A stretch of DNA of 64,000 nt from an uncultured Planctomycetaceae bacterium (GCA_963833985.1 CAWIAD010000001.1:2688001-2752000); one strand, 5' to 3'; shown: positions 8,320 to 48,960, counted from the first letter of the stretch. Made by a program: numbers and translations. The notes: a model not told the origin generated them from the letters alone.

Positions 8320-8530
8320 TCACCCGGTGAAGGGCCAGCGCCCGGCGCATCTCCCGCACGTTCGTGTATCGGGCCTGCGGATCGCGGGCCAGCTCACGAT
8401 GGATGATTCCGGCCAAGCCATCGGGAAGAGCGGGGCGGCGATCGCGGATCGGCACGGGGTATTCCAGCAAGATCTTCATGATCTTCGCGTGCAGCTTCGT
8501 GGGAAAGTCGTCGATGACCGGCCGTCGGTC
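8320..8530 (-). pseudogene. Degenerate duplicate (copy C) of the 3' end of the FHA-kinase gene
   Basis: Aligns to 10414..10626 ([26 protein letters not shown]...NVREMRRAL) with small indels. Confidence 0.88.
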
Positions 8531-8676
8531 CAACGCCAGGGTTTGGAGACCCTTGCAGAACGAAGGCGTGGGACAGCGGGGTCGGGAAACCCTCGCCGAA
8601 CAAAACAAGCTTGCAACGGAAGCAGCGGGGGGATCAAAGGGGGGTAAAGACAAACGTCGCGGCATGCCGGGCCACC

Positions 8677-8922
8677 CTACAGTCCCAGTCGTCGCTTCGC
8701 TTCCTCCAGGGATACGGTTGTGGTTTGTTTGGCGCGAGTCTCCAGTAGGGCCATCAGCCTGGGATTGGCGCGAGTCCGGGCGATCTCGCGGTCAAAATCG
8801 TCGACGGCTACAAGCAGAAATTCGCTGCCATCCGCGATCCGGACGACGATGTCGTCAACTCGAGCCTGATCGAGCAGGTTCACGATGTCAGGTGAGGCAT
8901 CAGTCAGTTCTACAGTCTTCAT
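8677..8922 (-). CDS. Putative antitoxin (Phd/YefM-like)
   Basis: 81 aa, ATGA overlap with the upstream toxin, C-terminal VSLEEAKRRLGL. Confidence 0.75.
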   Translation of the reverse strand: MKTVELTDASPDIVNLLDQARVDDIVVRIADGSEFLLVAVDDFDREIARTRANPRLMALLETRAKQTTTVSLEEAKRRLGL

Positions 8923-9212
8923 AGCTCGTGTTCTTCACCATGGATAAAGAGGCTGTTGCCAACCTTGCTGCCTACAGCCACAACCTTGACAACGGAATCC
9001 TCGAGAGAGACATCATGGAAGACACGAAAACTTTCGACTCGAAGCTCGCATTCGGCGAGTTGGTTCGGGCGGAGGCGTTTTCGTTTTCTCGTTTCGCGCG
9101 CCGGTTCATCTTTCAGTTGAACCTCGGTCTCGTCGACGACGCGTCTTGAATCGACATTTCGCAGAGAAGCCAGATCCTCCAGAGCTTCCGGCGTAAACTC
9201 AATGCGGTACAT
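8919..9212 (-). CDS. RelE/ParE-family toxin
   Basis: MYRIEFTPEALEDL...ELRVESFRVFHDV...VKVVAVG pattern. Confidence 0.85.
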   Translation of the reverse strand: MYRIEFTPEALEDLASLRNVDSRRVVDETEVQLKDEPARETRKRKRLRPNQLAECELRVESFRVFHDVSLEDSVVKVVAVGSKVGNSLFIHGEEHEL

Positions 9213-9380
9213 GCTGCCGCCAGGGACACTGAGGAGGCAATAAAGGGGGAGCCTCCATCCACCCCGTCGCCAGCTGCAATTCTACTCGGCGTATGGTCAA
9301 ACACGCGAGGTGTGCGCCATGGCCGCCGCCCGTTCCTTCAATGCCGTCATGACGACTAAATAGATCCTCGCCTCTTGGAA

Positions 9381-9434
9381 TGTGGGCCAGCCGCCCTCGG
9401 CTGGCTCAGGACGGCCGAGGGCGGCCGTTCCACA
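9381..9434. repeat. REP/REPIN-like palindromic doublet
   Basis: TGTGGGCCAGCCGCCCTCGGCTG...CGGCCGAGGGCGGCCGTTCCACA: two inverted GTGG-initiated palindromes. Confidence 0.7.
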
Positions 9435-9589
9435 CTTTCCCTCTTACGGGGAGCTATTTAGCTACTGGGAAATCGCCAGGCGAACCGACCAGGGGCAAGG
9501 GGCGCGCCGATCACGGCAAGCAGCTCGTGACCCGTCCGGCGCAGGGTCTGACCAGCAGAGGTGGGCGGGGATTCTGGTATCGAATTCTC

Positions 9590-9802
9590 TCACCTGGCAA
9601 AGGGTAGCAGCGCACGCCGCATTTCTCGCACGTTCGCGTACCGGGCCTGCGGATCGCGGGCCAGCGCACGATGGATGACCCAGGCCAATCCCACCGGTAT
9701 GTCGGGGCGGCGATCGCGGATCGGCACGGGGTCCTCCAGCAGGATCTTCATGATCTTCGCGTGCAGATTCCTGGGAAAGTCGTAGATGAACTGGTCGGTC
9801 AG
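9590..9802 (-). pseudogene. Duplicate (copy B) of the last 70 codons plus stop of the FHA-kinase gene
   Basis: 213 bp, about 20 mismatches to 10414..10626, no indels, stop retained, no start codon. Confidence 0.92.
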
Positions 9803-9875
9803 CAGCTACCAAAACAACGGCGAATGGATCCGTCGGTTACCACGAGTGTCCACTTCACTTTCTACGGCGTTTCCG

Positions 9876-10076
9876 TCACGCGCTTTGCTTGCGGGCAAGC
9901 AGCGCCCGAACCTCCGGAACCAGTTCGGTGGGGATGGCCATGAGCGTGATGTCCTCGGCCTCGCGCGCCGCCTCGATGTCGGCGAACTCCTCATCCTCGG
10001 TTTGGTTTTCGTAGTGCGCGATCATCTCCTTGACGCGCTTCTCATCCCAGCCAGGGGGAAACTTTTGCGTGCTCAT
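9876..10076 (-). CDS. Putative antitoxin, acidic 66 aa
   Basis: ATGA overlap with a BrnT/DUF4258-like toxin; FPPGWDE.RV...HYE motif. Confidence 0.75.
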   Translation of the reverse strand: MSTQKFPPGWDEKRVKEMIAHYENQTEDEEFADIEAAREAEDITLMAIPTELVPEVRALLARKQSA

Positions 10077-10357
10077 TTCGGTTTCCTCCGTTGTCGCCGC
10101 CGGAAGGCTTTCCTGGCCTTGCCTTGCGGTTCATATGCAGTAATCACAAATACGCTGTCGGGATCTTCGTCAGGCACGTAGAAGACTTGCAACAAGCGGC
10201 CGGCCGCAGTTTGGCCGATCTTCCGACGCGAGTTTCCCGTCGCGCGCAGGTCTTCACCCGGTCCGCGCAGGACTTCCCCAACTTCTCGTTCAGTGACCCC
10301 GTGCCCATGAATATGCGGCTGGCCGGTGTCTGGATCCTCGTAGAAGCGGAATTCCAT
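10073..10357 (-). CDS. BrnT/DUF4258-like toxin
   Basis: HGVTEREVGEVL...GQTAAGRLLQV...VFVITAY; GGAGG RBS. Confidence 0.82.
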   Translation of the reverse strand: MEFRFYEDPDTGQPHIHGHGVTEREVGEVLRGPGEDLRATGNSRRKIGQTAAGRLLQVFYVPDEDPDSVFVITAYEPQGKARKAFRRRQRRKPK

Positions 10358-10382
10358 GCCAACCCCTCCCTACCCGATTACG

Positions 10383-10388
10383 ATTCTA
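10383..10388 (-). promoter_or_regulatory. Putative -10 box (TAGAAT) of the TA cassette
   Basis: GGTAGAAT 25 nt downstream of the kinase stop and upstream of the toxin RBS. Confidence 0.55.
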
Positions 10389-10413
10389 CCGTGAAGGGAG
10401 TCTTGTGTAGTGA

Positions 10414-11846
10414 TCATCTGGTAAAGGGCAGCAGCGCCCGGCGCATTTCTCGCACGTTCGCGTACCGGGCCTGGGGATCGCGGGCGAGCGCGCGATGGAT
10501 GACCGCGGCCAGGCCTGCGGGTATGTCGGGGCGACGATCGCGGATCGGCACGGGGTCCTCGAGCAGGATCTTCATGATCTTCGCATGCAGCTTCTTGGGA
10601 AAGTCGTAGATGAACTGGTCGGTCAGGAAGTTGTAAAGCGTTGCGGCGGCGCTGTACTGGTCGGCGGCGGGCCTGGCCGCGCGCAGGTCGTTGATCTGTT
10701 CGGGCGCCATGAAAGGGGCCGTTCCGCCGCCCCCGTCACTCGAGCTCAGGCCGCTCATCTTGCTGGTCAGGTAGATGCGGGCGAGGCCGAAGTCAGACAG
10801 CTTGACCACCTCGCGGCCGCCTTCCGTGGTCACCAGCATGTTGGATGGTTTGACGTCGAGGTGGACGAAGCCCTTGGCGTGGGCGTAATCGAGCGCTTGC
10901 AGCACCTGGCAGACCAGTCCGATCGCGCGGGGGTCGGCAAGGGGCCGCGATGCTGCTTCAGCAAGTGCGCCGTATCGGTCCCCGGCACATAATCCATCGC
11001 CAGGTAGAGAAGTCCGCTCGCCTCGCCCAGCTCATGAAACGCCACGATATGCGGGTGATCCAGCTCGCTCAAAATCTGTGCCTCGCGAAGGAAGCGGTTC
11101 AGCTCCACAGGCGTGGGGTCGATGGCCGGCTTGATCGTCTTGATCGCCACAAGCGAGCCGTCGGCCGAGCGGATCGCCTGGTAGACGACACCCATGCCGC
11201 CCCGGCCCAGCTCGCGGACGATCTGGTAACCCGGGATGGGCTGGGGCAGAGTTGCAGTCTGTCCCAGGCAGGCCGGGCAGAGCGAGGTCGCCTCGACGTT
11301 CGTCTTCTGTCCCTCCGAACCACCTGACTCGACCTCACCCTCCGTAAGGCTTTTTCCGCACAGGCGGCAACTGCGTGAGGTTTTTGCGGCCAGCCGAGAC
11401 TGCGACGAAACATCCACCGTGGAGAGCGAGTGCCCGGTACGCGGGGCGCTTGAAACAGGTCGAGGAGCGGTCGGGAGCGGGGCAGCGGGCCCCGTGGACC
11501 CTGAAGTCAGGACCGTCTCGACCGAGGTAGCCACGGGCACATCGCTGTCGATTACAGAAACGATCAGGACGGTCTTCCCCGCCGTGATTCGATCGCCGTC
11601 CTTGAGGTCGGCCATGGCGACTTTCCGGCCGTTGACCCTGGTTCCGTTAGTGCTGTCCATGTCGGTCAGCCGGCACTGGGGCGGGTTCATCTCGATCATG
11701 AAATGCAGACGCGAGATGCTGTTATCGTTGACCGGAAGCCGGAAGCTGGCACGTTCCGACCGCCCCACGATGAAGAAGGCGCGTTCCTGGAACTCGAACA
11801 CCTCTCCCTGGTGCGGGCCTGCTTTGACCGTGAGGCTGATGCGCAT
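10414..11846 (-). CDS. FHA-domain Ser/Thr kinase with CxxC...CxxC motif; frameshift near 10930 (probably sequencing error)
   Basis: VGRS...SISRLH...DMDSTNGT (FHA); [30 protein letters not shown]; adding one base to the G run at 10929-10933 joins the two ORFs. Confidence 0.88.
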
Positions 11847-12541
11847 GGCCTGTGATCGACCCCCCAGGTTCGAATGACTCTCATCCCAAGGAGACAGGCA
11901 TTCATCATAGTCGTTGATGCAAGCTCTCACAAGCGTTTCAGCGCGCCCAGGCGGTAACGATCCGAAGAGATCTTTTTAGCGGTGCGTTCGGTGTCCGGCG
12001 GCGAAGCCGCGGGCGTGACCGGTTCGTCGTCGCCTTGGTCTGGGAAGTGGCGCGATCGCCCCGAGCGCCGTGGAGCGCGTGCGACCGTCCGCGGGAAAAA
12101 CTCACGTATCGACCCCGCGGCCCGCTTCCGAATTCTCGTCCAGGCGATGCTCACGGCGCTCGTTCCGGCCGTCCAGGCGGGTGTTTGCTCGAATTTCAGA
12201 ATCCACTGCGAATCTCTGAAAAAAAGCGGCGGCTTCACCACGTCTTGAATGGAAACCCGACCGATTCGTTCCAGAAAGCCTCTCCGCGGCCGGCGATCCA
12301 GGTCAATCGAAGTCCAGGGCAAGTCAGCTCGCCCCAGGGCAAAGGAAGCCTCGTCCCCGTGACGAGACGGGCACCAACGATCACCGCCTGAACCGGTGCA
12401 TCGCCTTGATTCAAACCACTTCCAGCAACCGGCCAGAAAGCCATCACCTGGTCGCCGGGCCGAACCGGCCGTTGAAGAACCCAGAACGACGCCATTTCCG
12501 AGGTGATGGACCAGGCTCGCTCACTACAAGGAGATAGGAAC

Positions 12542-19647: not shown

Positions 19648-21099
19648 CCTAGCCCATGTTTGGGGTGAGATCGCCTTCCGCGCGACTGCTGCCACGCATA
19701 ATTCCTCTATTTTCCAGGGGTTGGCGAGCGGCATACCCGTTTTTTTCCGAAAAGTGTAGTGACAATATCGACGCGATTACTTCGGAATTTACCTTGATTT
19801 CGCCTTGAAATCGGCGCGTTCCGTCGTGATACTTCACGACATGTACCTGAGAACCATAAAAGTCCGGTCGTCCAGCGGTGCGCTGAACGAGTACGTCCGC
19901 GTCGTCGAAGCCTATCGCGACAACGGTAAGGTCAAGCAACGCACCGTGGCCGATCTGGGACGCAAGGACCTGCTTGCGGAATTGTTTCCCAAGCTAAAAC
20001 GCTTGCTCGGTCAAGATGTCGAGTCGGAGTCCGCTGGGGACGAGGATCTCGACATCCTGGACGCTTCCACCTGGGGGCCGGTCCTCGCCGTCCGGGCCTT
20101 GTTCGACCAACTCGGGCTCTGGACCATCCTCGACGAATCACTCGGCAAAGCCAAAGGCGTGCCGTTTACTGACCGGGCCTTCGTGCTCATTGCCAATCGC
20201 CTGATTCACCCCGCCAGCGAACACGGCTTGGCGGGGTGGCTGGAGACCGACTTCGTCTGTGATCGCCAAGGCCGCCGTTTTGTTCCTCGCTGGCACCAGC
20301 ACAAGCGGGTTCGCGTCGACTTTCGCCAACTGGAGTCCTGGTACCGGACCCTCAATCAACTCGTGGACGCCAAGGAACGGATCGAGGTGGCTCTTTATCA
20401 CCGCCTTCGCGACCTGTTCAGTATCAAGCCGGACCTGGTGCTCTATGACATCACGAGCACCTACTTCGAGGGAGCTGGACCGGCCAACTTCGCCAAGCAT
20501 GGCTACAGTCGGGACGGCAAGCCGCACAACGTCCAGGTGATCGTCGGAGTGGTGATGGTGGGCGGCTGGCCGATCGCTCATCACGTTTGGGCCGGCAACG
20601 AAGTCGACCACCAGACCGTGCAGAAAGCCATTCGTGATCTGCACCAGCGATTTGGTTTCAGCCGCCTCGTTTTTGTCGGCGATCGAGGCATGATCACCAA
20701 TGACAATCTGGAAGCGATCACTGGCGACAAGCATGGCTATCTTGTGGGCGTGAAGCGAAGGCGGAATGCAAAGTTGACCAAGTGGCTGGCTGCCCTCGAC
20801 GATGCCAAGTGGATTTCTTGCCCGGTAGGGATCACCGCCCGGGAAAAGACCAATCCACCGCGCACTCGGGCGCAAGAGGTGCCGTCAGGAGTTGAAGGTT
20901 TGCGGATAATCATCGTCGATTCCGACGAGCGCCGCGAATACGAGCAAGCCATGCGTCAGAAGGCCATGGAGCGGACACATCAATCGCTCGAAGAAGTTGC
21001 AGGGGCGTGTGGCGGCAGGGAAGTTGAAACAGCCCGAGAAGATTGGCGCCGCAGCCGAGCACCTCCTGCAACGAAACCATGGCTATCGTTACTATTCGT

Positions 21100-23343
21100 C
21101 CTACTTTCCGCACATCTCGCCTTGACTATCTCGTAATTTCCGTGTGCCCTCTTTCGGCCAGTCAGGCTCAAATCTCGTAGGCTTTGGGTATCCCCAGCAG
21201 GCGCAGGATTCTCTTCTGGAGCCGAGTTAACTCTGTGCTGAACACCTCAAGAGGGCGTTTCCCAGCCTTCAGGGAATGCTCTTGAACGTCCTCGTACAGG
21301 TCGATCACTTTTCGAGCCGTCGGGCGTCGGCAGGCCCGACCTTCGGAATACAGTGGCAGGCTCTCGATTCCCGCTCGTTCCATCGCGCGGCGGAGTTCTC
21401 GCTCCAACAGCGCCTCGACCAGCAACACGAAGAAGTACACGCAGAGCAAGGCCTGAATCCGACTCACCTCCTTCAGGTACATAGGCGCTACCACGAAGTC
21501 AGTCTTCAGGTGCTCGAACCGTCGTTCGATGGCCGGTTGCTGTTTGTAGGCCAAGAGCAGATCCTGCTCCGTCATCTTCGATTCGTTGCTCACCAGCGGG
21601 AAAATGCCATCACAGCGGGCCTCCTCATCCAGTCGCTCCAACTCAATCCGATGCTTCAACGAGTAACGGAGCTTCTCCTCTCGGACGTACCGCGTGTCCT
21701 GTCCAGGCCGGCCGCGTCGCTCCTGGCGGAACTTTTCGGTGACCTGCTCCTCGATCTCGACCGAGATCCACTCGGTGACCTCACAGTCCCGGAGCAGCTC
21801 CTCGACCGCCTCGGCGACCTTGGCTCGACTGCGGTACCGGGTTCGGGACGAGGCGAGCTTGGCACGCAGTTCGTCCAGTCGTTTCAACGCCTTCTCCAGC
21901 CGGGTCAGCCGTACCTCCGCATCCAACTCGGCCTTGCGTGTGCTGTGATACCAGATCAGCCGGTAACCCTCGGTGGTCTGGCTCGCAGGTTTGCAGATCG
22001 AGAAGCGGTCGGTCAACTGTCCCTTGTCGTCGTACTTGTCGTGGGTCCATCGCCACTGGATCTCTCCCCGGAGTACGGCGCCGCGGAAGGCACCGTCCTC
22101 ACTGCGAGTTCGCGGCAGCACGCTGAGGAACCGACCGCCGCGCTGATGCAGATAGGCCATGTTCTCGGTGGTGGCCAGCTTGCAGTCGGCGATGTAGAGA
22201 AAGTCTCGGCGTCCGGTCAGTTGACAGAGCAACTCCCAGGTCTCCTGGTGAGAGCGGTCGTCGGTGGCGTTGCCGCTCTCGACGCGAAAGTGCACCGGGA
22301 CGGCACCGTCGCCGGTCACGGTGAGGATGTAGAGTAGCTGCTTGAGGTCGGGGCGGTGGTCTTTGTTATGACCCCAGGTCACCGCCAACCGCAATTGTCC
22401 CCGCAGGGTTCGCTCCGCCTCCGCCGACTCGTAGTCACCGTGGAAAGTGATGGTGGTCGAGTCGTTGTGTAACTGGTCGAGGCTGACGTCGAATTCGCGT
22501 ACGGCATGGGCCGCGACCTTCAGGGCCAACCCCGAGAGATTGGCGTCGAAGAGACGGTCGAGGGCCCGGCCAACTCGATCGTCGTTCATTGCGGCGACTT
22601 GGACATCGGACAACCCGAACAGTTTCGGCTCATGGCGGGCCACCCACTCACCGACACCATAGAGTGGCTCACGCGAGATCAGCAGGTTGCGCAGCAGGAC
22701 GAGCAAGGCCGTGGCCGTGGGGACCCGAGTGCGGCCGTCCTCATGGGGCAGGTGGTCGCAGAGAAACTCGCGAAGGCGGAGCCGACTCAGGAAGTGTTGC
22801 AGGATGGGCACGGCGGCAATCCGCCGCGTGTTGAGCGTGCGCTTGCGTCCCTTCGAGCGGGCCGTCTCGCCGGGTTGGCGCGGTCGTTGAGGTTCGTTCA
22901 TGCGGATCATCTCCGGAGGGTTTGCAGCGAGTTGGCCGGTGTCCGCCGCCGGGCCTTCCAGGGCCGTGAGGGGAGCAGGCCGACCGCCGCAGGGCTTGCC
23001 GCAATGATGGCGGAGGAGATCGGGACGTCAAGGACAAAAAATCTTGTGATTCACTTATGACAATTTGCCTTGACGTAAGTTGTGAGCCGCTCAACTTACG
23101 CTCATAGCCCGTGTCACAAGTCGTCGCGGCGAGAATCGCGGCGCACGGCTGGACATTGCCAAGTCATAAGACAAGGCGAAGAATGGCTCGAGTTCAGGAA
23201 CGGTCCGGTTGGCGAACCATCTGAACCGAACAAGGTCCCCGTGCCGATCGACTTGTAGATGTTTACCGACCCTGGGGCCGCGTCTGAGAAGATGGCCTCA
23301 GGTCGAATTCGGGGAAATCAAAGGGAGATGTGCGGAAAGTAGG
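21100..23343 (-). mobile_element. IS1634-family element copy B (2244 bp), about 99% identical to copy A and inverted relative to it
   Basis: Same TIRs; 6-bp target duplication ATTCGT at 21094-21099 and 23344-23349. Confidence 0.94.
21168..22910 (-). CDS. IS1634-family DDE transposase
   Basis: 580 aa, 3 amino-acid differences from 669..2411. Confidence 0.92.
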   Translation of the reverse strand: MIRMNEPQRPRQPGETARSKGRKRTLNTRRIAAVPILQHFLSRLRLREFLCDHLPHEDGRTRVPTATALLVLLRNLLISREPLYGVGEWVARHEPKLFGLSDVQVAAMNDDRVGRALDRLFDANLSGLALKVAAHAVREFDVSLDQLHNDSTTITFHGDYESAEAERTLRGQLRLAVTWGHNKDHRPDLKQLLYILTVTGDGAVPVHFRVESGNATDDRSHQETWELLCQLTGRRDFLYIADCKLATTENMAYLHQRGGRFLSVLPRTRSEDGAFRGAVLRGEIQWRWTHDKYDDKGQLTDRFSICKPASQTTEGYRLIWYHSTRKAELDAEVRLTRLEKALKRLDELRAKLASSRTRYRSRAKVAEAVEELLRDCEVTEWISVEIEEQVTEKFRQERRGRPGQDTRYVREEKLRYSLKHRIELERLDEEARCDGIFPLVSNESKMTEQDLLLAYKQQPAIERRFEHLKTDFVVAPMYLKEVSRIQALLCVYFFVLLVEALLERELRRAMERAGIESLPLYSEGRACRRPTARKVIDLYEDVQEHSLKAGKRPLEVFSTELTRLQKRILRLLGIPKAYEI

Positions 23344-23908
23344 ATTCGTGGGACCTCGACAAGGGGATTTTCCGCTACTTTGAGAACACGAAGGGTCTGA
23401 CCAATGAGCAGGGAATCGAAGGCAAGTATGTGATCGCCACGAGTGAAGCAGCGCTCAGCGTGCTTGAGGTCGTGGCGATCTACAAGGACCTGAGCGATGT
23501 CGAGCGCGGGTTTCGCCAGCTCAAGGACGTGCTGGCCATGCGGCCGATTTATCATCAGATTGAGGAACGAGTAAAAGCACATATTTTCGTAGCTGCACTG
23601 GCATTACTGGTCCAGCGGCTATTGCACCGCCGACTTGAGCACGCTGGGATAGATTTCTCTCCAGAGAGGGCGATGCAAGCTCTCTCCACGCTCCGGGTGG
23701 TGACCCTCCGTCTCGACGATCAGCCCGAACGGCAAGGAGTCAGTGGAGGCTGCCCCGATGCGCGGCGGGTCCTGAAGGCGCTGGGCTTAACCGAGCTCAG
23801 GCCGCCAGCACCACCGGAAGACGAAAAAACCGTGATGTAGTGACAATCTGAAAAATCGCCCCTTGCGCCGCAAGGACTTAGGGCGACCCACCCCAAACAT
23901 GGGCTAGG

Positions 23909-25536: not shown

Positions 25537-25551
25537 TTGTGCGAGCCGCCA

Positions 25552-38333: not shown

Positions 38334-38895
38334 GCGCCTTTGCGGTCGGCCGGCTGCTGAGGAGTGTGCCGCGCGGTCGAACTCGGCGTGACGACCTCGG
38401 CGCCGTCCTGAACCGCTGCTGCAAGTTCTGTTGCCACTCCGCCCATCCGGGCAGTCGCTCCCGAAGCTCCTCGGCCTGGCCGTTCTGCGGCGGACTGGCG
38501 AACTTCCAGCGATCGGCCGTGACCAGAAGCTGGATGAGCGTTGCGAAGTGCTCCTCGCCGAGCGCCTGCCTGACCGCGCCGTCGCCGGAAATCTCCTCCG
38601 TGGTGCGGGCTCGCAACGCCGGGCCGAACCGTGACGCCAGCGTCTCCCGCGCCTGCAAGGCCAGGCTCACAAGCTGACCGTCGGCCGTCTCTGGAACGGG
38701 AACCGGGACGACCGACACCGGCAGGCCCCGCGCCCGACGCCTGCGGATCCAGATCCAGAACGCCAGGGCCAGCAGTGCAATCAGCAGTGACCCGGCGGGG
38801 AGCAAGCGCCCACCGACGGACCTGGCCTCGGACCACGGCTCGGGACCGGGATTGGGGCGGGGAAGGACAATGACGCGCGCGTTCTCTTCGTTCAA
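38248..38895 (-). CDS. Hypothetical membrane protein coupled to DUF58
   Basis: TTG start overlaps the DUF58 stop; one TM; start and 3' overlap uncertain. Confidence 0.6.
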   Translation of the reverse strand: MNEENARVIVLPRPNPGPEPWSEARSVGGRLLPAGSLLIALLALAFWIWIRRRRARGLPVSVVPVPVPETADGQLVSLALQARETLASRFGPALRARTTEEISGDGAVRQALGEEHFATLIQLLVTADRWKFASPPQNGQAEELRERLPGWAEWQQNLQQRFRTAPRSSRRVRPRGTLLSSRPTAKALNQGFLRPPGRSQTGRRARRSGRGRCAA

Positions 38896-39824
38896 TGGAC
38901 ACCTCGGCGAGTCGATCGGCGGGAGAACAGCTCGATCAGGGAAAGGATCGGCTCGACCTCCGTGGACAGGGAATAGCCATCCACGCCAACGCTGGCGCAC
39001 CAGCGATGAAACGTCTGCTGCCGTTCACGCGCCCGCCGCGCGTAGTCGGCCCGTTGCGACTTGAGCGAGGAATCGATGAGCTGGACCTTGCCGGTCTCGG
39101 CTTCCTCCAGTGCCAGCAGCCCGGCGGCGGGAAGCTGCTGCTCCAGCCCGCTGACGATACGCATCGCGATGGCATCGTGCCGCCGAGCCGTGCGCCGCCA
39201 GAGGCCGACCGGCTCGTCCGTGTCGAAATCGCTGAGGACGATGACCATGGACCGGTGCGCCGCCCGGCGCACCCGCGAGAGCCCGACCCCGAGCTGCGTC
39301 TTGAGCGAGGTGGTCGGCGTGGCGACGAGGGCGCGGACGATCTGCGAGAGATGGCGGATGCCGCCGGCGGGCGCCAGCTCGACCTCGATGCGATCGCTGA
39401 CCATGAGCAGACCCACGCGGTCACCGTTGTGCACGGCCGCGGTGGCCAGCAGGGCGGCGGCCTGAGCGGCCCGGTCGGCCTTGGTGCGGCCCTCCAGGCC
39501 GAACCGCATGCTGGCGGAGACGTCGAGCACCAACCAGAGCGTGAGCGACCGCTCCTCGACGAACCGGCGCACGAACGGCTTGCCCTGCCGGGCCGTGACG
39601 TTCCAGTCGATGTGCCGGACGTCGTCTCCAGGCTCATAAGCACGCAACTCGGCAAACGTCAGCCCCACGCCGGGCCGTGCTCCATGATAGGCCCCCGCCA
39701 GTTGCGTGACCGCCTCCGGCCGCACCCGGAACCGCAGTCGCCGCGCCCTGCGGATGATCTGTGCGGCATCGATGGCGGAAACGGCGGGCTGCTTTGGTCT
39801 TTTGCTGCGGAACGGCCAGATCAT
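38892..39824 (-). CDS. DUF58 family (vWA-like) protein
   Basis: FAELRAYEPGDDVRHIDWNVTAR, DVSASM, LSDF. Confidence 0.92.
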   Translation of the reverse strand: MIWPFRSKRPKQPAVSAIDAAQIIRRARRLRFRVRPEAVTQLAGAYHGARPGVGLTFAELRAYEPGDDVRHIDWNVTARQGKPFVRRFVEERSLTLWLVLDVSASMRFGLEGRTKADRAAQAAALLATAAVHNGDRVGLLMVSDRIEVELAPAGGIRHLSQIVRALVATPTTSLKTQLGVGLSRVRRAAHRSMVIVLSDFDTDEPVGLWRRTARRHDAIAMRIVSGLEQQLPAAGLLALEEAETGKVQLIDSSLKSQRADYARRARERQQTFHRWCASVGVDGYSLSTEVEPILSLIELFSRRSTRRGVH

Positions 39825-40147
39825 GGTGGGCCCAGGTCGAGGTTGCCGAAATGCGGTCCAGGAGATGCTCAGCACCATCGGGCAGCCAAAGCACGCCCTG
39901 GTCCATCCTAACCAGTTCGGTCCCTGTGAGCGACTGCCTCCAGAGACCCTGACCGAGCGCATACGCTCTCGCCCTGTTGGGACAGGGTTATCGCCCGAGC
40001 CGAAATGGCGACGTCGCGTCTCACTTGAATCTGGCGGCCCGGCCTCCCCACCCCTCGCGAAGCGATCGCGTCCTCGCTTCGGATCGTTCGCCTCATGAAA
40101 TGACGGGTCATGACTGCATTAGTCTAGCCGAGAGGGATCAGGAGCGA

Positions 40148-40768
40148 TCAGGAAGGTCCTGGCCCGTTCGGGTCGGCCGGGGTGGCACGCGGCTCTTCGG
40201 CAGAAATGCGGCGTGGCAGGATGTCGCTCAGGGCACAGCGGAAGCCCGGAATCACGTCCTCGCCGGAGAGGACGTCGGCCTCGTCCAGCCGGACGGGCGG
40301 TCCGTCGGGGCGGAAGACCCATGCCCTGCGTGCTTTCGGGTAGATGACCCAGACCAGGGGCACGCCGGCCTGCTGGTAGTCCTCCAGCTTCTCCTCGAGT
40401 TCCTCGGCCGCATCGTGGGGAGAGACGACCTCGACGGCCAGGTCGGGGGGGATCCTCACCCAGCCCTCCGGCGAGACATCGCCGGGCAAGCGCCCACGCC
40501 GGACGAACGAGACATCGGGCTTGCGCACCCGGCCGGGAGCGTGAGCGAAGCACTGGTAGCCGTTGTCGGCACCCCAGACCAGCCCCAGGCGAGACTCGTC
40601 GCAGAACCGATCCAGACGAGAACAGAGTTGCGTTCCAACCCGGCTCGATTCCGCTCCCATGTTTCGCTCCACCAGTCGGCCATCGACCAGTTCATAACTC
40701 TTGCCATCAGGCATGGCCAGCAGGTCTTCCGGCGTGTAGCGGGTTTGGGTGGCAACGGCCGTGCTCAT
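40148..40768 (-). CDS. Uma2 family endonuclease, copy 1
   Basis: YELVDG, RKPDVSF, PDLAVEVVSP, AGVPLVWVI. Confidence 0.92.
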   Translation of the reverse strand: MSTAVATQTRYTPEDLLAMPDGKSYELVDGRLVERNMGAESSRVGTQLCSRLDRFCDESRLGLVWGADNGYQCFAHAPGRVRKPDVSFVRRGRLPGDVSPEGWVRIPPDLAVEVVSPHDAAEELEEKLEDYQQAGVPLVWVIYPKARRAWVFRPDGPPVRLDEADVLSGEDVIPGFRCALSDILPRRISAEEPRATPADPNGPGPS

Positions 40769-40932
40769 GGTCCGGCTCCGTCGTGACGGGAGTCATAGTG
40801 CGAACAACAGCATTCTACCATCGCCCCGCTCCACCCGGGAGACGCACGGCGCATTCGCTCTCTGGCATCCCACAACGCGGGCGGCCCCAACCGTGCCAAA
40901 CGTGCGCCATGACCAGTTCGAGCGGGGAGCGA

Positions 40933-41553
40933 TCAGGAAGGTCCCGGCCCGTTCGGGTCGGCCGGGGTGGCACGCGGCTCTTCGGCAGAAATGCGGCGTG
41001 GCAGGATGTCGCTCAGGGGACAGCGGAAGCCCGGAATCACGTCCTCGCCGGAGAGGACGTCGGCCTCGTCCAGCCGGACGGGCGGTCCGTCGGGGCGGAA
41101 GACCCATGCCCTGCGTGTTTTCGGGTAGATGACCCAGACCAGGGGCACGCCGGCCTGCTGGTAGTCCTCCAGCTTCTCCTCGAGTTCCTCGGCCGCATCG
41201 TGGGGAGAGACGACTTCGACGGCTAGGTCGGGGGGGATCCTCACCCAGCCCTCCGGCGAGACATCGCCGGGCAACCGCCCGCGCCGGACGAACGAGACAT
41301 CGGGCTTGCGGACCCGGCCGGGAGCGTGAGCGAAGCACTGGTAGCCGTTGTCGGCCGGCCAGAAATGCCCCAGGTGGTGCTCCTCGCAGAACGATCCAAG
41401 GCGCAGCAGCAAGCGCCCCGCGACCTCACTCGATTCCGCTCCCATGTTTCGCTCCACCAGTCGGCCATCGACCAGTTCATAACTCTGACCATCGGGCATG
41501 GCCAGCAGGTCTTCCGGCGTGTAGCGGGTTCGGGTGGCAACGGCCGTGCTCAT
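40933..41553 (-). CDS. Uma2 family endonuclease, copy 2
   Basis: Same motifs as copy 1. Confidence 0.92.
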   Translation of the reverse strand: MSTAVATRTRYTPEDLLAMPDGQSYELVDGRLVERNMGAESSEVAGRLLLRLGSFCEEHHLGHFWPADNGYQCFAHAPGRVRKPDVSFVRRGRLPGDVSPEGWVRIPPDLAVEVVSPHDAAEELEEKLEDYQQAGVPLVWVIYPKTRRAWVFRPDGPPVRLDEADVLSGEDVIPGFRCPLSDILPRRISAEEPRATPADPNGPGPS

Positions 41554-41839
41554 GGTCCGGCTCCGTCGTGACGGGAGTCATAGTGCGAACAACAGCATTC
41601 TACCATCGCTTCGCTCCACCCGGGAGACGCACGGCGCACTCGCTCTCTTGCATCCCGCAACGCGGGCGGCCCCATATCTCCGTTACAAATCTGCCTCCGC
41701 CGGGCGTGAGGTACGCTCTCCCAACGCAGGCAGGTGGTGAGACTGTAAGCAGAAACGACTCAGAGTAGACACTGGGGGCCACCTACGCCTCGGGATCGCG
41801 GTGCGTGGGTGGCCCCGTCTGATCGCGTCTGATTGCCCT

Positions 41840-42202
41840 TTACGAGCAACGCTCGACACGGACATGAAGGTTGTCCGGGGCCGTATCGAAGTACCGGAAC
41901 AATGCGGGGCAGAGCCAACCTTGAGCCTTGGTCACCGATTCCTCATACCAGTTGCCGCCTCCCTCTTCCTTGACTCGCCTGGCGGTTAGCTGGTGGCCAG
42001 GGAACGGGATGGCAGAAAAAATCAGGCGAAAGCCCTTTTCAGCCTCCTCGATTGGGATACCTTGCTGTACCAGGAGGGCTTCCAGGATCTCGGGCACGCC
42101 TGCCACAAATGGTTCCCGCACAAGACCTGTCCGGTCGTCGTCGAAGACCCACAAGCCCTCCCATCTGTAGGGCTTCACGACCATGATGCTATTCTGATGC
42201 AT
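41840..42202 (-). CDS. DUF6717-like hypothetical protein
   Basis: PY...WVFDD...L.REPFVAG, FS..PFPG, GWLCPALF.YF. Confidence 0.75.
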   Translation of the reverse strand: MHQNSIMVVKPYRWEGLWVFDDDRTGLVREPFVAGVPEILEALLVQQGIPIEEAEKGFRLIFSAIPFPGHQLTARRVKEEGGGNWYEESVTKAQGWLCPALFRYFDTAPDNLHVRVERCS

Positions 42203-42449
42203 CGCTGGATCCGCCTGAAATCAGTACCTCGCCGTCAGGCGTCGTACCCAGTTACGACGGACCTGGACCCATTGTTGCCGCTCTCTCCGGCTGCCAGGTT
42301 GAGGGCTTATTGACCTCTTGAGACTTGTCCTATGTCCGCTGCCCTGTGAATACGTATGTCCTTCCAGAATCTTACGGGATGAGGATCGGACGGGGCCATC
42401 TACTCTCGCGCAGCGCAGGACGTGGCTGGCCCCATCTGTCGACTCTCGA

Positions 42450-44120
42450 TTAACGACGTCCGTGACGTCCCATCCGGCGAAACCCGTGCCGGACGATTCC
42501 CGCAGTGGTCAAGGTCGGCGATGGGGATGACGTGCTCGAGGGTGTCGATGCGGTGGTCGTCGATGACGAGGATGGGAAAGTGACCGGCGTGGTACCGGAG
42601 GCGGACGTGGCCGTGGAGGCGGGGACGGGGGCGGTGCTCTTCAGGTTGGTCATGTCCGTCTGGATGGCCGCCTTGTCGGCGGCGATCGTCGACAATTCGG
42701 TCGAGGTGATCTTCGAGTCAGTCATCGTCTGGGTCAGGTCAGTAAAAGTCTGGCTGATCGTGTTCGAGCTCACCGATGTTCCGTTGAAGAGCGCCGTGAA
42801 ATCGCTCTGGGCCTGCGTGGTGTCCGCGCCCGAGGCTACCGCCGTGGCCAGCTCGGAGATTGCCTTTGCCAGTGCTGTCTGGTCGACAGTCGTTCCGGTC
42901 TGGGCAATCGCCAGAGCGTCGGCATTCAGCTTGGTCAAATCGGCGGCCGTCACGCCCGAGGCGCTCGCCACGGTCTTGAGGTCGGTCTGGAGCTTCTGGG
43001 TATCCGTCTGAAGCTGCGTCGCGGCCGTGCTGGTGGTTGAGCTTGTGCTTTGGGGCAAGCCGCTCAAGCCGCCGGCACCTCCCGCACTCAGGACGTCGCC
43101 GCCGGCCAGCCCCACTCCTGTGCCCGAGAGGACACCCAGATCACCCAGGTTCTGAACGAACCCGCCGCCACCGGGCAGGCCCATCGGCGAGCTGGCCTCA
43201 AGTATCGTCTGGTCCTTCTGCACGGCCGCCTGATCGGCGGTGATACCGGAGAGCTGCGCCGAGGTGATCTTGGAATCGGTGATCGTCTGGGTCAGGTCAG
43301 TGAAGGCCTTGTCGACGGTCGTGGAGCTGACCGACGAGCCGCTGAAGAGGGCGGTGAAATCGGTCTGAGCCTGCGCGGTGCTGGCGCCGGAGGTGATGGC
43401 GGTGGCCAGTTCGGTCATCACCTTCTGGAGCGCAGTCGGGTCAATCTGAGCCCCGGCTTGCATGATGGCCTGGTCATCCGAAGTCAGCTTATTCCAGTCG
43501 GCAACCGTAACGCCCGATGACGTCGCGACAGCCTGGATGTCGGTCTGGAGCTTCTGCAAATCCGTCTGAAGCTGGGTCGCCTGAGAGCTGGATGCAGCCG
43601 TGTCCGGCGCCATTACCTGAGCACCACCTCCCGATGGGGCGCCAGTCACACCGATGGACGCCAGGCTGCCCATCAGGCTGCCGCCTCCGATTTCCGCCAT
43701 GCCGCCGACAGGGGCTCCCATGCCACTTGAAAGCGTCACCGGCCCTCCCATGCCGTCCGCGATACTGAGCGACCCTGCCATCCCTCCTGCGATCGCGACC
43801 GGCCCCCCCATTCCACCCGAGATTGCCTGCGACGCCCCGCCACCTGCGGGAGCAGTGACCTGTCCTCCCATTGCCCCCGAAAGTCCAAGCCCTCCGATGT
43901 CTGCGCCGCCTCCGAAGCCGCCGGAGCCACCCATCTCTCTGGCACGCATGAGGACTGGCATCGCACCGCCGATGCCGCCACCGAAACCAGACATCACCAC
44001 TCGGCCTTCAAGCTGCTCGCAGGTCCGTTCCGCCCGTAATGATCTCTTCTTGCGACGATTCCGGGCCGCTTCGCGTGCGTCGGAAAGCGGACCACTCAGG
44101 TCGAACAGGCGTGACGCCAT
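42450..44120 (-). CDS. Planctomycete extracellular protein with Gly/Met-rich region and two ~120-aa helical repeats
   Basis: CEQLEGRVVMS motif; internal repeat ATQLQTD...DFTALF...DSKITS. Confidence 0.8.
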   Translation of the reverse strand: MASRLFDLSGPLSDAREAARNRRKKRSLRAERTCEQLEGRVVMSGFGGGIGGAMPVLMRAREMGGSGGFGGGADIGGLGLSGAMGGQVTAPAGGGASQAISGGMGGPVAIAGGMAGSLSIADGMGGPVTLSSGMGAPVGGMAEIGGGSLMGSLASIGVTGAPSGGGAQVMAPDTAASSSQATQLQTDLQKLQTDIQAVATSSGVTVADWNKLTSDDQAIMQAGAQIDPTALQKVMTELATAITSGASTAQAQTDFTALFSGSSVSSTTVDKAFTDLTQTITDSKITSAQLSGITADQAAVQKDQTILEASSPMGLPGGGGFVQNLGDLGVLSGTGVGLAGGDVLSAGGAGGLSGLPQSTSSTTSTAATQLQTDTQKLQTDLKTVASASGVTAADLTKLNADALAIAQTGTTVDQTALAKAISELATAVASGADTTQAQSDFTALFNGTSVSSNTISQTFTDLTQTMTDSKITSTELSTIAADKAAIQTDMTNLKSTAPVPASTATSASGTTPVTFPSSSSTTTASTPSSTSSPSPTLTTAGIVRHGFRRMGRHGRR

Positions 44121-44612
44121 TGATTCCCCCCTTCCTTGAATCCACGTGCGGGACGTGTAGCGCCCAAATCCAGGATCTGAGCTTGGGCGGTCGAGGACTC
44201 CTTCCTCTTCCACCTAACGAACGGGAGACGGGCACGCCAAGCGCGCGCGGTTCAGGGGGAGAAAGAGCCTGAAATGGAAAAGGCCATCAATCCCACTATT
44301 TTCAAGGGTTTTCTCAAGAAAACGCCACCTTGAGTCGACGCGGCTCACGACCTGGGACGGCCCGAGCGGTTCGCACGCGGTGCCTGCCGAAATGCTCGGC
44401 CGGCGCGTCCCCAGCGCCGTCGCGGAATATCCCGGCCAGGGCAGCATCACACTGTCCGGTTCCTCTGCCGTTGCCGGCCCCGACCCGAACTGCGAGTCCT
44501 GATCAAATCGCAGCGCCACATCATCGCTGCGCCTGAAACCGAGGTCGCTGTGCGAGTGCTCGAGCTTGCCCGCAACGCGCGCCGTCGCGCGGGCGGAACG
44601 GAACTCATGCGC

Positions 44613-45294
44613 TCACACCCGCGCCAGGCTTTCGCCGTGGCGGGGGAGGGGGACGACCGCGGCGCGGAAGGGCTCGGCGGCGAGGCGGATCCGCACGTCC
44701 CAGCGACCCGTCTCATCGGCCGTGACGTGCCAGTGGGGGACGACGGCCGAGGACTGGTAAACGCCCTCGAAGCCTCCCTCGCTCTGGCTCACCGTCTCGA
44801 TGGGGTAGCACCAGAGACCCCCCGGACGCGACCAGGAGAGGCCCACCGCGAGGTCCAGCCACTCGTCCGTGAGCGACAGGCCCTCGGTGTGCGGCGCGTC
44901 GATACGCGCATCGAGCATTCCCAGCCGGGCGCCCTGCGTGTCGGAATAGTAGCGGTCCGTCGCATGCCCGGCCATGGCCGCCAGGTTGAGCTCAACGGCA
45001 AAGTGCAAGCAGACGCCGGGGGGCAGATCGAGAAGCTCGTAATGCACGTCCAGGGCCGGCGCTCCGGCAGCCAGAGCGATCGATTTCTTGATCCGGATGG
45101 CGTGGCCGGAGGCCATTCCCGGGCGCTCCATCGCCAGCAGCACGCGCCTGGAGTCGCGCTGGGCACGCGCCAGGTAAGTACCCGTGACAAAGTCTCCGCG
45201 CTCCACATCGCCACACGCCGCCAGGTCTTCCAGCGTCACGTCGACAGGGTAGAAGTGATCCACGAGCGCCTTGCGCGGATGGCGATCGTAGACA
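44613..45294 (-). pseudogene. Duplicate of the 3' end of the 4-alpha-glucanotransferase gene
   Basis: 44609..45294 matches 46762..47447 at about 99%; begins mid-gene. Confidence 0.95.
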
Positions 45295-45392
45295 CGCGGC
45301 GGCTATGAGGACATCCTCCGCGGTCGCGTTGCGGAGGCGACGGGCGATTCGAATGCAGATGATGACACGACCGCGCGCAATCACGCCACGCC

Positions 45393-45421
45393 TTGGCAAC
45401 GCCACCTCGCTGTGCTATTCT
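45393..45421 (+). promoter_or_regulatory. Sigma-70 promoter of the TA operon
   Basis: TTGGCA-N17-TATTCT with extended TG, followed by purine-rich RBS. Confidence 0.7.
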
Positions 45422-45445
45422 GAAAATCGAAGGAGATACCGGAGC

Positions 45446-45757
45446 ATGACGATTCGTTTACCCGACCATCTCCAACGATATGTCCACGACCAGGTCGAGG
45501 CGGGTCACTTCCGCAGCGAGGACGATGTGATCCTCGATGCCCTGGAGCGGCACCGTCAAGCTCAGCAGCAGCCCTCCCCGCCGGCCATTCGCCCCGACAA
45601 GCTCAGCAGCCAGGAGGTGCAACAACGCTTGTTCGACGCCGGCCTCATCAGCGAAATCAGGCCGCCGATCACCGACCTTGCCCTCTACCAAAACCGCCGG
45701 GCTATCCCCATCCAGGGTGAGCCCATCTCCGCAACCGCACTCCGCGAGCGGCGTTAA
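45446..45757 (+). CDS. Antitoxin with ParD-like RHH N-terminus
   Basis: MTIRLPDHLQRYVHDQVEAGHFRSEDDVILDAL; C-terminal GEPISATALRERR. Confidence 0.8.
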   Translation: MTIRLPDHLQRYVHDQVEAGHFRSEDDVILDALERHRQAQQQPSPPAIRPDKLSSQEVQQRLFDAGLISEIRPPITDLALYQNRRAIPIQGEPISATALRERR

Positions 45758-45759
45758 CG

Positions 45760-46209
45760 GTGCCGGAATTCTTTCTCGACACCAGCGCGGCCTTGAAGCG
45801 ATACGTCCTGGAACCCGGCACTCCTTGGGTACAGGCACTGGCCGCACCCGCGGCTGGTCATTCCCTCATCATCGTACGAATCACCCTGGCCGAGACCGCC
45901 GCCGCCATCACCCGGCGGGAGCGGGACGGCTCGATCACGCCCATGGACGCCGCGACCGCACTGGCCGACTTCCAGCTCGATTTCGCGCGCCAGTACTTCA
46001 TCATCGAGGTGTCTGCTCCCCTGGTAGACCAGGCCGCCACCCTGGTGAGAAAGCACGGGCTGCGGGGCTATGACGCCGTGCAGCTTGCAGCAGCCCTAGA
46101 AACGCAGGCTCGGCTCCCAACGCTGACGCTGCTTTCGTCCGACGTTGAGCTCAATGCCGCCGCGTTGGCCGAGGGCCTGGCCGTTGACGATCCCAGCAGC
46201 CATCCCTGA
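45760..46209 (+). CDS. vapC: VapC-family PIN domain toxin
   Basis: FLDTSAALKRY..E.G, LRGYDAVQLAAA, SSD..L..AA. Confidence 0.9.
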   Translation: MPEFFLDTSAALKRYVLEPGTPWVQALAAPAAGHSLIIVRITLAETAAAITRRERDGSITPMDAATALADFQLDFARQYFIIEVSAPLVDQAATLVRKHGLRGYDAVQLAAALETQARLPTLTLLSSDVELNAAALAEGLAVDDPSSHP

Positions 46210-46765
46210 TCGTCTGGTCGTGCATCGATCAGAGATCTAATTCCCGTGTTCTCTGGCAGTTTTTAGGAGGGCTGTGAACAAGGGACCGAGAAGGGCAAGG
46301 GCCGGGAACAGGCCGCACTTCCTGCGGCATACAAGCATACCAGGACGGACATAAATGGAACCTTGACCCGGGAGGTGGCCTACAACCCTTCCTCAGAGAT
46401 GAAGGTATCGTCGGCCTCCACCTCGCACTCAGCGAGGAACTCGCGATCAATGAAGTCGTCGCGGGGTCACGTTCGCTCAATCGACTGCTGGTCCCGGGTG
46501 CTATCCTTGCGGGAATTCAAGATATGGTCCCGATGAGACTTTGAATGTACCGGCCGGGATCGCTCGCTCTCTCGGGACTGCTCAATGAGCCTGTTCTGCG
46601 TCAGGCTTTAGTACGATGCGGATGGTGATTGGCTGCCTCTCGTTTGATCACGCACCGGTGAGCCTACCCGAATGGCCACATCCTGCCCGTGTCACTTCTC
46701 TCTCCCGGAGGAACAGGGCGTACCATGTGGTTCGCAAGGTCCCACACCGGATCAGAGAAGCGCGC

Positions 46766-48960
46766 TCACACCCGCGCGAGGCTTTCGCCGTGGCGGGGGA
46801 GGGGGACGACCGCGGCGCGGAAGGGCTCGGCGGCGAGGCGGATCCGCACGTCCCAGCGACCCGTCTCATCGGCTGTGACGTGCCAGTGGGGGACGACGGC
46901 CGAGGACTGGTAAACGCCCTCGAAGCCTCCCTCGCTCTGGCTCACCGTCTCGATGGGGTAGCACCAGAGACCCCCCGGACGCGACCAGGAGAGGCCCACC
47001 GCGAGGTCCAGCCACTCGTCCGTGAGCGACAGGCCCTCGGTGTGCGGCGCGTCGATGCGCGCATCGAGCATGCCCAGCCGGGCGCCCTGCGTGTCGGAAT
47101 AGTAGCGGTCCGTCGCATGCCCGGCCATGGCCGCCAGGTTGAGCTCAACGGCAAAGTGCAAGCAGACGCCGGGGGGCAGATCGAGAAGCTCGTAATGCAC
47201 GTCCAGGGCCGGCGCTCCGGCAGCCAGAGCGATCGATTTCTTGATCCGGATGGCGTGGCCGGAGGCCATTCCCGGGGCATCCATCGCCAGCAGCACGCGC
47301 CTGGAGTCGCGCTGGGCACGCGCCAGGTAAGTGCCCGTGACAAAGTCTCCGCGCTCCACATCGCCACACGCCGCCAGGTCTTCCAGCGTCACGTCGACAG
47401 GGTAGAAGTGATCCACGAGCGCCTTGCGCGGATGGCGATCGTAGACAAGCATCCGGTCCAGGCCCTCCTGCTTGAGGACGACGCGGTCGTGGATGCTCGC
47501 CGGCCCATTCGTCGCGGCGTGCTCGTCTTGCTTCGCGTGGATGGCCTCGGCGATGGCCCGGTGATAGGCCTCGGGCCGGCGGTCGAGCGTCGCCAGTACG
47601 TTGACGGCCGCCTGCCGCACATCCAGCTCGTAGAGATGCCCGCCCTGCGCAGGTCTGATGAAGGCGACCAGGTTCTCGTTCTCGAGCAGCACTTCCTGGC
47701 GGGCGTCCAGGTTGAAGTCGGCTGCCTCGAGCGAGACGTGCGGCGCGGCTTTTCCGCCGGCCTCATCCAGTGCATTGTGAGCGTTGATCAGGCTGCGATA
47801 GATCGCGTTGCGGAGATGCGGCAAGTAGAGCCCGCCGAAGGCGCCATGCCAGTACGGGCAGTTGCACTGCCCGCGGTAAAGCTCGCGGCGCGCGATTTCC
47901 AGGTAATCCGGATCGGCACCGTCGCGGGCCGAAACCTCCGCCAGCCGGCGCGAGACGCCGAGCATGCGGGCGTACATCTCGTCGCTCTCGGGGTAGCGCG
48001 CCTTGAAGTTCCGCCAGAACCCGCCGGCGCGGAAGAACGGCCTGAGCGGCTCGGCCAGCTCACTGGCGGCCACGCGGGCCTTCGTCTGCTCGTAGTCCTG
48101 ATGCAAGCCGGCGGGAAGCACCCACTCGGTCATCTCGCGGTAGGAGCCGTCCGGGATGTAGACCTTTCCCTGGGGAAGCGTCGAGTCCACAGCGCGCCGA
48201 GCGTCGTCACCTCCAGCCAGTCGCGATTGGCCACCAGCATGTCGCAGAAATGACGCAGCCAGCCGTGGGTGTAGACATGGTCAAACGTATCGGGCCAGGT
48301 GCCAAACTTCTCACCGTCGTCGGCGAAGACCACGGTGGCGCCCGGGCGGCGATCGGCCAGGCGGCGGAGGAACTCGTAGGTGGCGTGCGGCTCCTGGAAC
48401 GGCACGGTGTAGCGGAGGGTTTCCGAGCCTGGGAAAACCTTGAGCAGCCGGCCCTCGTCCTCGGTGAGGTAGTAGCCGAAGAGGTCGTCGCCGCGCACGG
48501 CGGATCGCTGGAAGTGGAAGTCGTCGAGGATGGTGAACTCGATGCCCGCCTCGGCGACGGCCGCCACCAGGTGCTGCTCCCAGACCCGCTCGGGAACCCA
48601 CATGCCGCGGACCTTCGTGGGGAAGAGCTGTTCCAGGTAAGCCGAATAGTCGCGGATCTGCCCCACGCGGTCGCGGTGCGGGATCATCGTCATGATCGGC
48701 TCGTAGAACCCGCCGCCGAGGATCTCGACCCTGCCCGCTTCCACCAGCCCGCGCACCAGTGCGATGTACTCGGGATGGTGCTCGACCAGCCATTCAAGAA
48801 GCGGACCGGAGGTGTGCAGCGAGAAGGGGATCTCCGGGTAGCTCCCGAGCACCTCCAGGAACGGCGCGTAACTTTCGCGATAGGCCGCCTCGAAGACGCC
48901 GTCGAAGTTGCCGACGGGCTGGTGGTTGTGGAGCGCGAGGATCAGGCGCACGGTGGACAT
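46766..48960 (-). CDS. GH57 alpha-amylase/4-alpha-glucanotransferase; frameshift near 48195
   Basis: HNHQPVGNF, GMWVPERVWE, DDGEKFG, YREMTEW, YWHGAFGGLY, SQSEGGFE..YQ. Confidence 0.9.

Follow-up and report, generated by a model that had tools for sequence, protein, structure and literature searches.

Predicted toxin-antitoxin pairs between duplicated gene 3' ends in a planctomycete genome share the layout of insertion with long target duplication

Nobusato et al. reportedly described insertion with long target duplication for restriction-modification (RM) genes in 2000. In a later study (Furuta et al. 2010, PMC2853133), addictive genes lie between long, variable and unique direct repeats without a mobility gene, the repeats often span start or stop codons, the target is left intact, relatives have empty sites, the arrangement is enriched over that at ordinary genes, and the mechanism is left open; the supplement of that study lists further cases, which may bear on the question of alleles taken up below. 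Here we describe this layout around three predicted toxin-antitoxin (TA) pairs in a stretch of 64,000 nucleotides from an uncultured Planctomycetaceae bacterium (GCA_963833985.1, CAWIAD010000001.1:2688001-2752000; the whole stretch is called the window below), where the duplicated sequences are the 3' ends of an FHA-Ser/Thr kinase gene (8317-11846) and of a gene for a GH57 alpha-amylase/4-alpha-glucanotransferase (38892-48960). The window resembles the RM cases of PMC2853133 in that the repeats are unique and longer than 30 bp, the inserts are shorter than 20 kb and free of integrase and transposase genes, and an empty site exists. It differs in that the cargo consists of type II TA pairs and of further small genes, in the high frequency of the arrangement within one genome (13-14 of 56 TA loci), and in that, when the loci of the genome are pooled, the two versions of a repeat look like alleles from separate lineages and not like copies of the target. 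The word "toxin" is absent from the main text of PMC2853133, and no published report of TA pairs between duplicated gene ends was found in a literature search that covered subscription journals thinly. The arrangement is thus a TA-pair version of a known layout and not a new system, although an earlier note on this DNA had known of no named element with such a structure.

Three other described systems share part of this architecture. In Escherichia coli, according to PMC3240628, linear DNA carrying a gene 3' end was trimmed, circularized and integrated by a RecA-dependent single crossover; 56 of 60 clones were integrated in this way, with duplications of 109-950 bp in the 14 that were sequenced. 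The product, a gene followed by cargo and a truncated 3' end with no integrase, has the same order as the units described here, but it came from a laboratory construct under antibiotic selection, whereas the units in the window are known from sequence alone. In the displacement of effector-immunity modules of type VI secretion system (T6SS) and Rhs loci by homology-facilitated illegitimate recombination, as presented in PMC5361080, new toxin modules placed behind a conserved anchor push older pieces downstream and the members of an array stem from different strains; there, however, the anchor is itself part of the toxin locus and older sequence is lost, while here the anchor is an unrelated gene whose end is duplicated. 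Finally, cis-mobilizable elements (CIMEs), as described in PMC5704250, are integrase-less units that stand in tandem behind a gene end and bring a replacement 3' end, but they need a fixed attachment (att) site and a cognate integrase, a description that fits only one HAD gene of this genome and not the window loci as tested.

Self-BLAST of the window confirmed that three TA modules lie between direct repeats consisting of gene 3' ends at two loci, and the approximate unit sizes given earlier (0.8, 1.3 and 2.15 kb) were measured as 824 bp for TA1 and 1270 bp for TA2, both at the kinase locus, and 2153 bp for the GH57 unit (Table 1). No repeat ends more than 4 nt away from the stop codon that closes the intact gene, and the repeats (213-689 bp) have only local copies in the genome. 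The PIN and RelE/ParE toxins score above the Pfam cut-offs, whereas the remaining family assignments are less firm; for the TA1 toxin, Atlas gave 0.98 to DUF4258 clusters and 0.91 to a cluster with 23% BrnT. By family assignment, the three cargo pairs are predicted to be type II TA modules. No open reading frame (ORF) for an integrase or transposase was recognized inside the window units, whose cargo measures 0.6-1.5 kb, and no inverted repeat was found at the unit ends (scores 12-14 against a null mean of 12.9 and a 95th percentile of 17). The statement that the units contain no integrase, transposase or terminal inverted repeat has to be amended in its last part, because the 1.27-kb unit contains a miniature inverted-repeat transposable element (MITE) with short terminal inverted repeats. 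This MITE is missing in the allele of the related genome G010 and is therefore taken as a later passenger (G numbers denote genomes, G000 being the host, and L numbers denote fetched loci; the sample comprised 121 genomes). Its 8-bp ends recur on a 1.69-kb element (C1:1425888-1427570) with an ORF that, as judged by eye, resembles ISL3.

Table 1. Features of the kinase and GH57 loci, in positions of the window
Feature	Position	Strand	Basis or remark
Kinase-WD40 gene, convergent	4892..8269	+	In relatives, downstream neighbor of the kinase
Kinase 3' end copy 3, oldest orphan	8317..8530	-	2-bp deletion near end; 10411-10624 against 8317-8530, 216 bp, 83.8% identity (self-BLAST)
TA2 antitoxin, Phd/YefM-like	8677..8922	-	PF02604, E=1.5e-4, below cut-off
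TA2 toxin, RelE/ParE	8919..9212	-	PF05016, 27 bits, cut-off 23
MITE, 106 bp	9356..9461	.	8-bp terminal inverted repeats; 45 genome matches at E<=1e-20
Kinase 3' end copy 2, orphan	9590..9802	-	213 bp, 90.6% identity to copy 1 (self-BLAST)
TA1 partner, presumed antitoxin	9876..10076	-	
TA1 toxin, DUF4258/BrnT-like	10073..10357	-	Pfam DUF4258, E=0.0015, below cut-off
Kinase 3' end copy 1, working end	10414..10626	-	Self-BLAST
FHA-Ser/Thr kinase, intact	10414..11846	-	Pfam FHA and Pkinase
DUF58 gene	38892..39826	-	Directly downstream of GH57 in empty-site relatives
GH57 3' end copy 2, orphan	44609..45297	-	689 bp, 98.7% identity to copy 1 (self-BLAST)
TA3 antitoxin, ParD/CC2985-like	45446..45757	+	TIGR02606, E=2.7e-7, below cut-off
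TA3 toxin, VapC/PIN	45760..46209	+	PF01850, 30.4 bits, cut-off 23.6
GH57 3' end copy 1	46762..47450	-	Self-BLAST
GH57 alpha-amylase/4-alpha-glucanotransferase, intact	46766..48960	-	Pfam

The association of TA loci with direct repeats extends over the whole host genome (10.16 Mb in two contigs, C1 and C2; 96% complete), which is that of an Isosphaeraceae planctomycete; the best named homologs of the GH57 protein are from Isosphaeraceae. A survey gave 57 matches to six families (PIN 27, ParE 7, BrnT 5, DUF433 14, HicB 1 and TacA 3), which correspond to 56 loci because two matches fall in one locus. When repeats were required to be at least 35 bp long, at least 78% identical and within 2.5 kb on either side, 25 of the 56 loci (26 of the 57 matches) were flanked, against 13 of 500 control genes taken from a pool of 2133 small genes (P=9e-19). 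The enrichment that the earlier note had named as a check is thus about 17-fold, and the control background is, if anything, too high because several control matches look TA-like by eye. Part of the repeats belong to dispersed families with 5-124 copies. With a strict set of repeats, at least 60 bp long and without a distant copy in the genome, the counts were 13 of 56 TA loci and 7 of 500 controls, or 14 of 56 if one locus is added whose repeat measured 40 bp in one scan and 79 bp in another. The 13 strict cases comprise eight gene 3' ends, two 5' ends and three intergenic or unclear sites, and a gene-based scan of 6211 genes, predicted with our own gene caller, found the same layout around non-TA cargo elsewhere in the host, so the phenomenon is not restricted to 3' ends and TA cargo as had been supposed. 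That scan gave 33 partial copies of gene tails downstream and 34 of gene heads upstream, against 9 and 9 in the control orientations; no 3'/5' ratio was drawn because many of the head-upstream matches are paralog families. Genes of the Uma2 family, also proposed as an enriched cargo, were repeat-flanked in 19 of 61 cases, mostly as tandem paralogs.

Three further observations concern repeats near TA or competence genes of the host. Three TA loci (C2:5694701-5694989, C2:4462739-4462959 and C2:3199293-3199932) are flanked by a hairpin-like repeat of about 60 bp that occurs in about 120 copies and adjoins transposase genes which, as judged by eye, are RAYT-like. At C1:1163096-1169315, a dprA-like competence gene is followed by several diverged partial copies with differing boundaries. 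At C2:2136074-2136766, a HicB-HicA-like pair lies between 102-bp perfect repeats beside an integrase island, and these repeats take in the end of tadA together with the 5' portion of a sequence that, by eye, resembles tRNA-Ser; an integrase lies 1.4 kb away, but the repeat was not counted as an att site because its tRNA-like portion is the 5' part and because the island, as judged by eye, is on the opposite side.

Comparison with relatives, which are other species and not conspecifics, revealed single-copy sites for GH57, for the kinase and for a ParE unit on C2, the outcome of a comparison that the earlier note had named as a check. No GH57 orphan was found in 40 other genomes, 32 of which had a match, or in 80 further loci, and GH57 stands directly before DUF58 in three of the eight relatives listed (L002, L005 and L072). 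The kinase homolog has a single end in five relatives (L052-L056) and in L321/L322, and the site of the C2 ParE unit is empty in G006, G009 and G011. Repeat-flanked PIN loci also occur in relatives (seven of 60 fetched loci against five of 183 control windows; P=0.011), the 60 having been taken from 150 listed of 339 matches with long contigs favored; further independent repeat-flanked TA cases were found in G013 and G018, and two of 20 loci with TA1 homologs have gene-fragment repeats. The phenomenon is therefore wider than the host genome but much denser there, and short-read assemblies may hide some of the relatives' cases.

The divergence between the paired repeats indicates what the two copies once were. 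Among 28 gene-overlapping pairs, dN/dS (the ratio of nonsynonymous to synonymous rates) was 0.21 for the 14 TA pairs and 0.16 for the 14 others, with differences at third codon positions and no internal stop in any orphan. The synonymous fraction of the differences was 226/360 (0.63), against 0.37-0.48 predicted for duplication in place followed by neutral decay (P<=2e-8, with the caveat that the sites of one locus lack independence and that similarity was the criterion for collecting the pairs), a process also predicted to yield about seven stops. A model of in-place duplication, with one copy decaying neutrally afterwards, was rejected under all parameter sets tried. Changes on the orphan branch, polarized with outgroups in six pairs, were 25 synonymous to 20 nonsynonymous (P<=9e-4 against neutrality), and in five of six pairs with diverged last codons the stop lies at an identical codon position in the two copies; in fabF, for example, the tails YTPKGQR* and YTPNSRN* have the same length. 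The synonymous bias, the lack of stops and the same-position stops suggest that each copy once closed a functional gene, the simplest view being that these genes stood in different lineages, and for the pooled loci the view of the repeats as literal copies of the resident target is rejected on the basis of these substitution patterns.

We lean toward the idea that the units arose through single-crossover homologous capture of foreign DNA consisting of a gene end and a TA pair, an origin that we consider somewhat probable. DNA from a related cell, carrying that cell's own allele of the gene end together with a neighboring TA pair, would be closed into a circle and enter the chromosome by one homologous, RecA-dependent crossover. 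The gene would then be completed by the end that came in, while the resident end, displaced downstream, would become the orphan. A circle with a gene end and its downstream neighbor gives exactly the observed product by one crossover, so that a dedicated recombinase would not be needed. This Campbell-type reading, already offered in the earlier note, fits the two-lineage alleles and has a precedent in PMC3240628. Because looping out between the repeats would remove the antitoxin gene, the TA pair would favor retention of the unit, and the longer perfect runs in TA units than in non-TA units (24 of each, chosen by eye out of 97 pairs; P=0.012) hint faintly and indirectly that TA pairs hold recombination-prone repeats apart, as the proposed penalty on loss would have it. 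The host genome has Ku, ComEC in two pieces and, as judged by eye, a DprA-like gene.

The kinase locus would represent two such captures in series. The flank of copy 3 matches the post-stop flank in G060 and adjoins the ancestral convergent neighbor, while G010 has a kinase-spacer-RelE-Phd arrangement with no orphan in 8 kb and with the same spacer as that behind copy 2, which indicates that the cargo moves together with the gene end upstream of it. These comparisons place G060 on the copy 3 side and G010 on the copy 2 side and form the support for two lineages at this locus; as read from them, the likely order of events runs from the ancestral end (copy 3) to the addition of copy 2 with the RelE-Phd pair and then to that of copy 1 with TA1.

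Several findings weigh against homologous capture or do not follow from it. The orphan branch of the kinase taken alone shows eight synonymous to 12 nonsynonymous changes, which is compatible with neutral decay, and the GH57 pair has only nine differences, so that the two-allele case draws chiefly on loci elsewhere. The starts of the two kinase orphans differ by 2-13 bp, which is unexpected for random circle joints, and imperfect microhomology at junctions was not in excess (12 of 24 against a null of 10.3; P=0.22). TA1 sits upstream, not downstream, of the kinase in L321/L322, the GH57-VapC arrangement expected of a donor was found in none of the 121 genomes, none of 19 VapC-pair homologs is repeat-flanked, and the pattern is rarer in relatives than in the host. 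A further such finding is an orphan of a HAD gene on C2, outside the window (C2:5097937-5099719, L221; also L288, L289 and L290), whose boundary falls on the same base in five places in four genomes (G000, G002, G008 and twice in G009). It is preceded by a 20-bp arm that occurs at no other site in the 121 genomes, and the DNA upstream of the arm differs in most of the five places. Such a fixed boundary with an arm has the look of the end of a site-specific element, but the motif could alternatively be a promoter. Two matches to the arm in viral contigs had no HAD sequence beside them and were taken as chance.

A site-specific route is the main rival to homologous capture. In its most explicit form, which seems unlikely to us, the units are relics or satellites, like CIMEs, of integrative elements that target protein genes; each would carry a replacement end and be moved by an integrase in trans, and tandem units would reflect accretion at one att site, a process described for integrase-less CIMEs in PMC5704250. 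The constant HAD boundary with its arm and the near-identical boundaries of the kinase orphans fit this proposal, and a carried replacement end would also account for the synonymous divergence and the same-length tails. However, the kinase orphans have no arm in common, and no conserved arm, common motif or restriction-site palindrome was found across the 24 events and their junctions; this lack of a shared motif, like the absence of repeats around the VapC-pair homologs, also speaks against the dedicated system that had been suggested at first. Kinase boundaries differ in other genomes, the repeats measuring 213 and 211 bp here, 364 bp in L324 and 123 bp in G018, and the dprA repeats measure 168 and 473 bp. 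More than 20 target genes in one genome would each need their own specificity, and ends of 300-700 bp at 98-99% identity resemble chromosomal alleles. No dif-like site was found in either window locus with a XerD-arm consensus at up to two mismatches. The nearest tyrosine-recombinase matches are 205 and 241 kb from the window loci, 11 of 12 TA events are more than 120 kb from such a match, and among the matches listed the serine recombinases are about 100 kb or more from the window loci. Even for HAD, a tblastn search aimed at tyrosine recombinases detected none in the fetched flanks of three genomes, and the arm might be a promoter or what is left of a single ancestral event. The integrase-free nature claimed for these units thus holds at the window loci and may fail at least for the HAD target. 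Apart from these loci, a large serine recombinase occurs in about 11 near-identical copies in the host, which suggests an active recombinase-encoding element similar to an insertion sequence (IS).

True target duplication, in which a staggered break and its repair would copy the resident target around a foreign TA cassette and only gene-sparing insertions would survive, agrees with the RM-gene description as given in PMC2853133, with the 98-100% identity of some pairs and with the neutral look of the orphan-branch changes in the kinase; we nonetheless hold it to be quite improbable, because the pooled synonymous bias, the lack of stops and the alternative tails of equal length are unexpected under it. 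It would also accommodate a history of the cargo in integrons. In G011 (L388, 1817-1911), a TA1 module with 96.6% identity ends in an attC-like hairpin (z=-2.5), and the similarity between it and the window TA1 stops at the first bases of that hairpin; in G081 (L393), a TA1 homolog lies among tandem attC-like sites, recognized with a hand-made pattern; and TA1 in relatives sits at unrelated places. Because attC-like sites follow TA1 in G011 and G081, some of the cargo likely came from an integron pool before fixation behind a gene end. The window units themselves differ from integron cassettes in that no attC-like site was found in them with a loose hand-made pattern and no IntI above the cut-off was found in the host genome (best TIGR02249 match 98.9 bits, cut-off 265). 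Insertion of an integron cassette makes no long duplication. Separately, small genes in G002 (L292 and L293), among them a ParE pair with 93% identity to one in G000, are set apart from each other by a dispersed repeat of about 63 bp, and in G000 a degenerate copy of this repeat follows the pair; on inspection the repeats around the G002 module were not identified as attC. A speculative combination, to which we give little credence, would be a dedicated route to gene ends that acts in trans in Isosphaeraceae, in which small circles with replacement ends for dozens of genes and a recombinase arm, as at HAD, load TA cassettes, some of them integron-derived, genome-wide.

Less probable again is a merodiploid origin, in which a gene-plus-TA segment came to stand in tandem with a foreign allele and one gene copy eroded to a short end while the TA pair kept the middle. 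The position of TA1 just upstream of the same kinase in L321/L322, the duplication of a whole small gene around a ParE pair at C2:755-757 kb, and the kinase fragment of L324, which begins at the Phd stop codon on a 1-kb metagenome contig where the upstream gene is not assembled, all suit such an origin. It would, however, demand extra steps at every locus, and the DNA between cargo and orphan matches neither kinase nor spacer sequence; no useful match to this DNA was obtained in the host genome or the fetched loci. An assembly artefact joining alleles of co-occurring strains is very improbable and misassembly in general unlikely, for although the two-contig assembly contains frameshifts, no public record bridges the kinase junctions and none spans a whole unit, a public record of 151 nt identical to 45221-45371 crosses the GH57 orphan junction at 45297 with zero differences, the near-complete G004 (L165) has the same architecture at a different gene, the architecture also occurs in G013, G018 and G002, and the copies are often only 80-90% identical.

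Turning back to the window, we note that both target genes are interrupted in the assembly by frameshifts of probable technical origin. The kinase reads as two overlapping ORFs with one frameshift near 10905-10960, likely a long-read error, and its homolog in G066 is a single ORF of 494 aa; the GH57 frameshift at 48197 is likely a sequencing error because a related public record has an additional G there. Between the GH57 orphan and its ancestral neighbor DUF58 lie 4.8 kb more of inserted DNA (39842-44608) with a Uma2 pair, a DUF6717 gene and a gene for a low-complexity protein with an internal repeat, and the GH57-DUF58 junction holds differing inserts in several relatives. The tandem Uma2 genes (40141-40889 and 40926-41674) are 94% identical with their differences clustered in one stretch, and other Uma2 tandems occur elsewhere in the host genome. 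Elsewhere in the window, inverted copies of a DUF4277/DDE transposase element (233-2480 and 21099-23346) are 99.3% identical and 18.6 kb apart, and a large gene of about 2600 aa (55358-62987) contains a stretch of about 3.7 kb that is duplicated in tandem within it, with 69% identity.

The arrival and persistence of chromosomal TA pairs that lack a mobility gene have so far been poorly explained. The host genome offers more than 20 natural cases, and their sequences argue that the apparent "duplication" usually consists of a donor allele and a resident allele. If so, TA capture has likely replaced, as a side effect, the 3' ends of genes such as fabF, selB and the dprA-like gene by those of foreign alleles.

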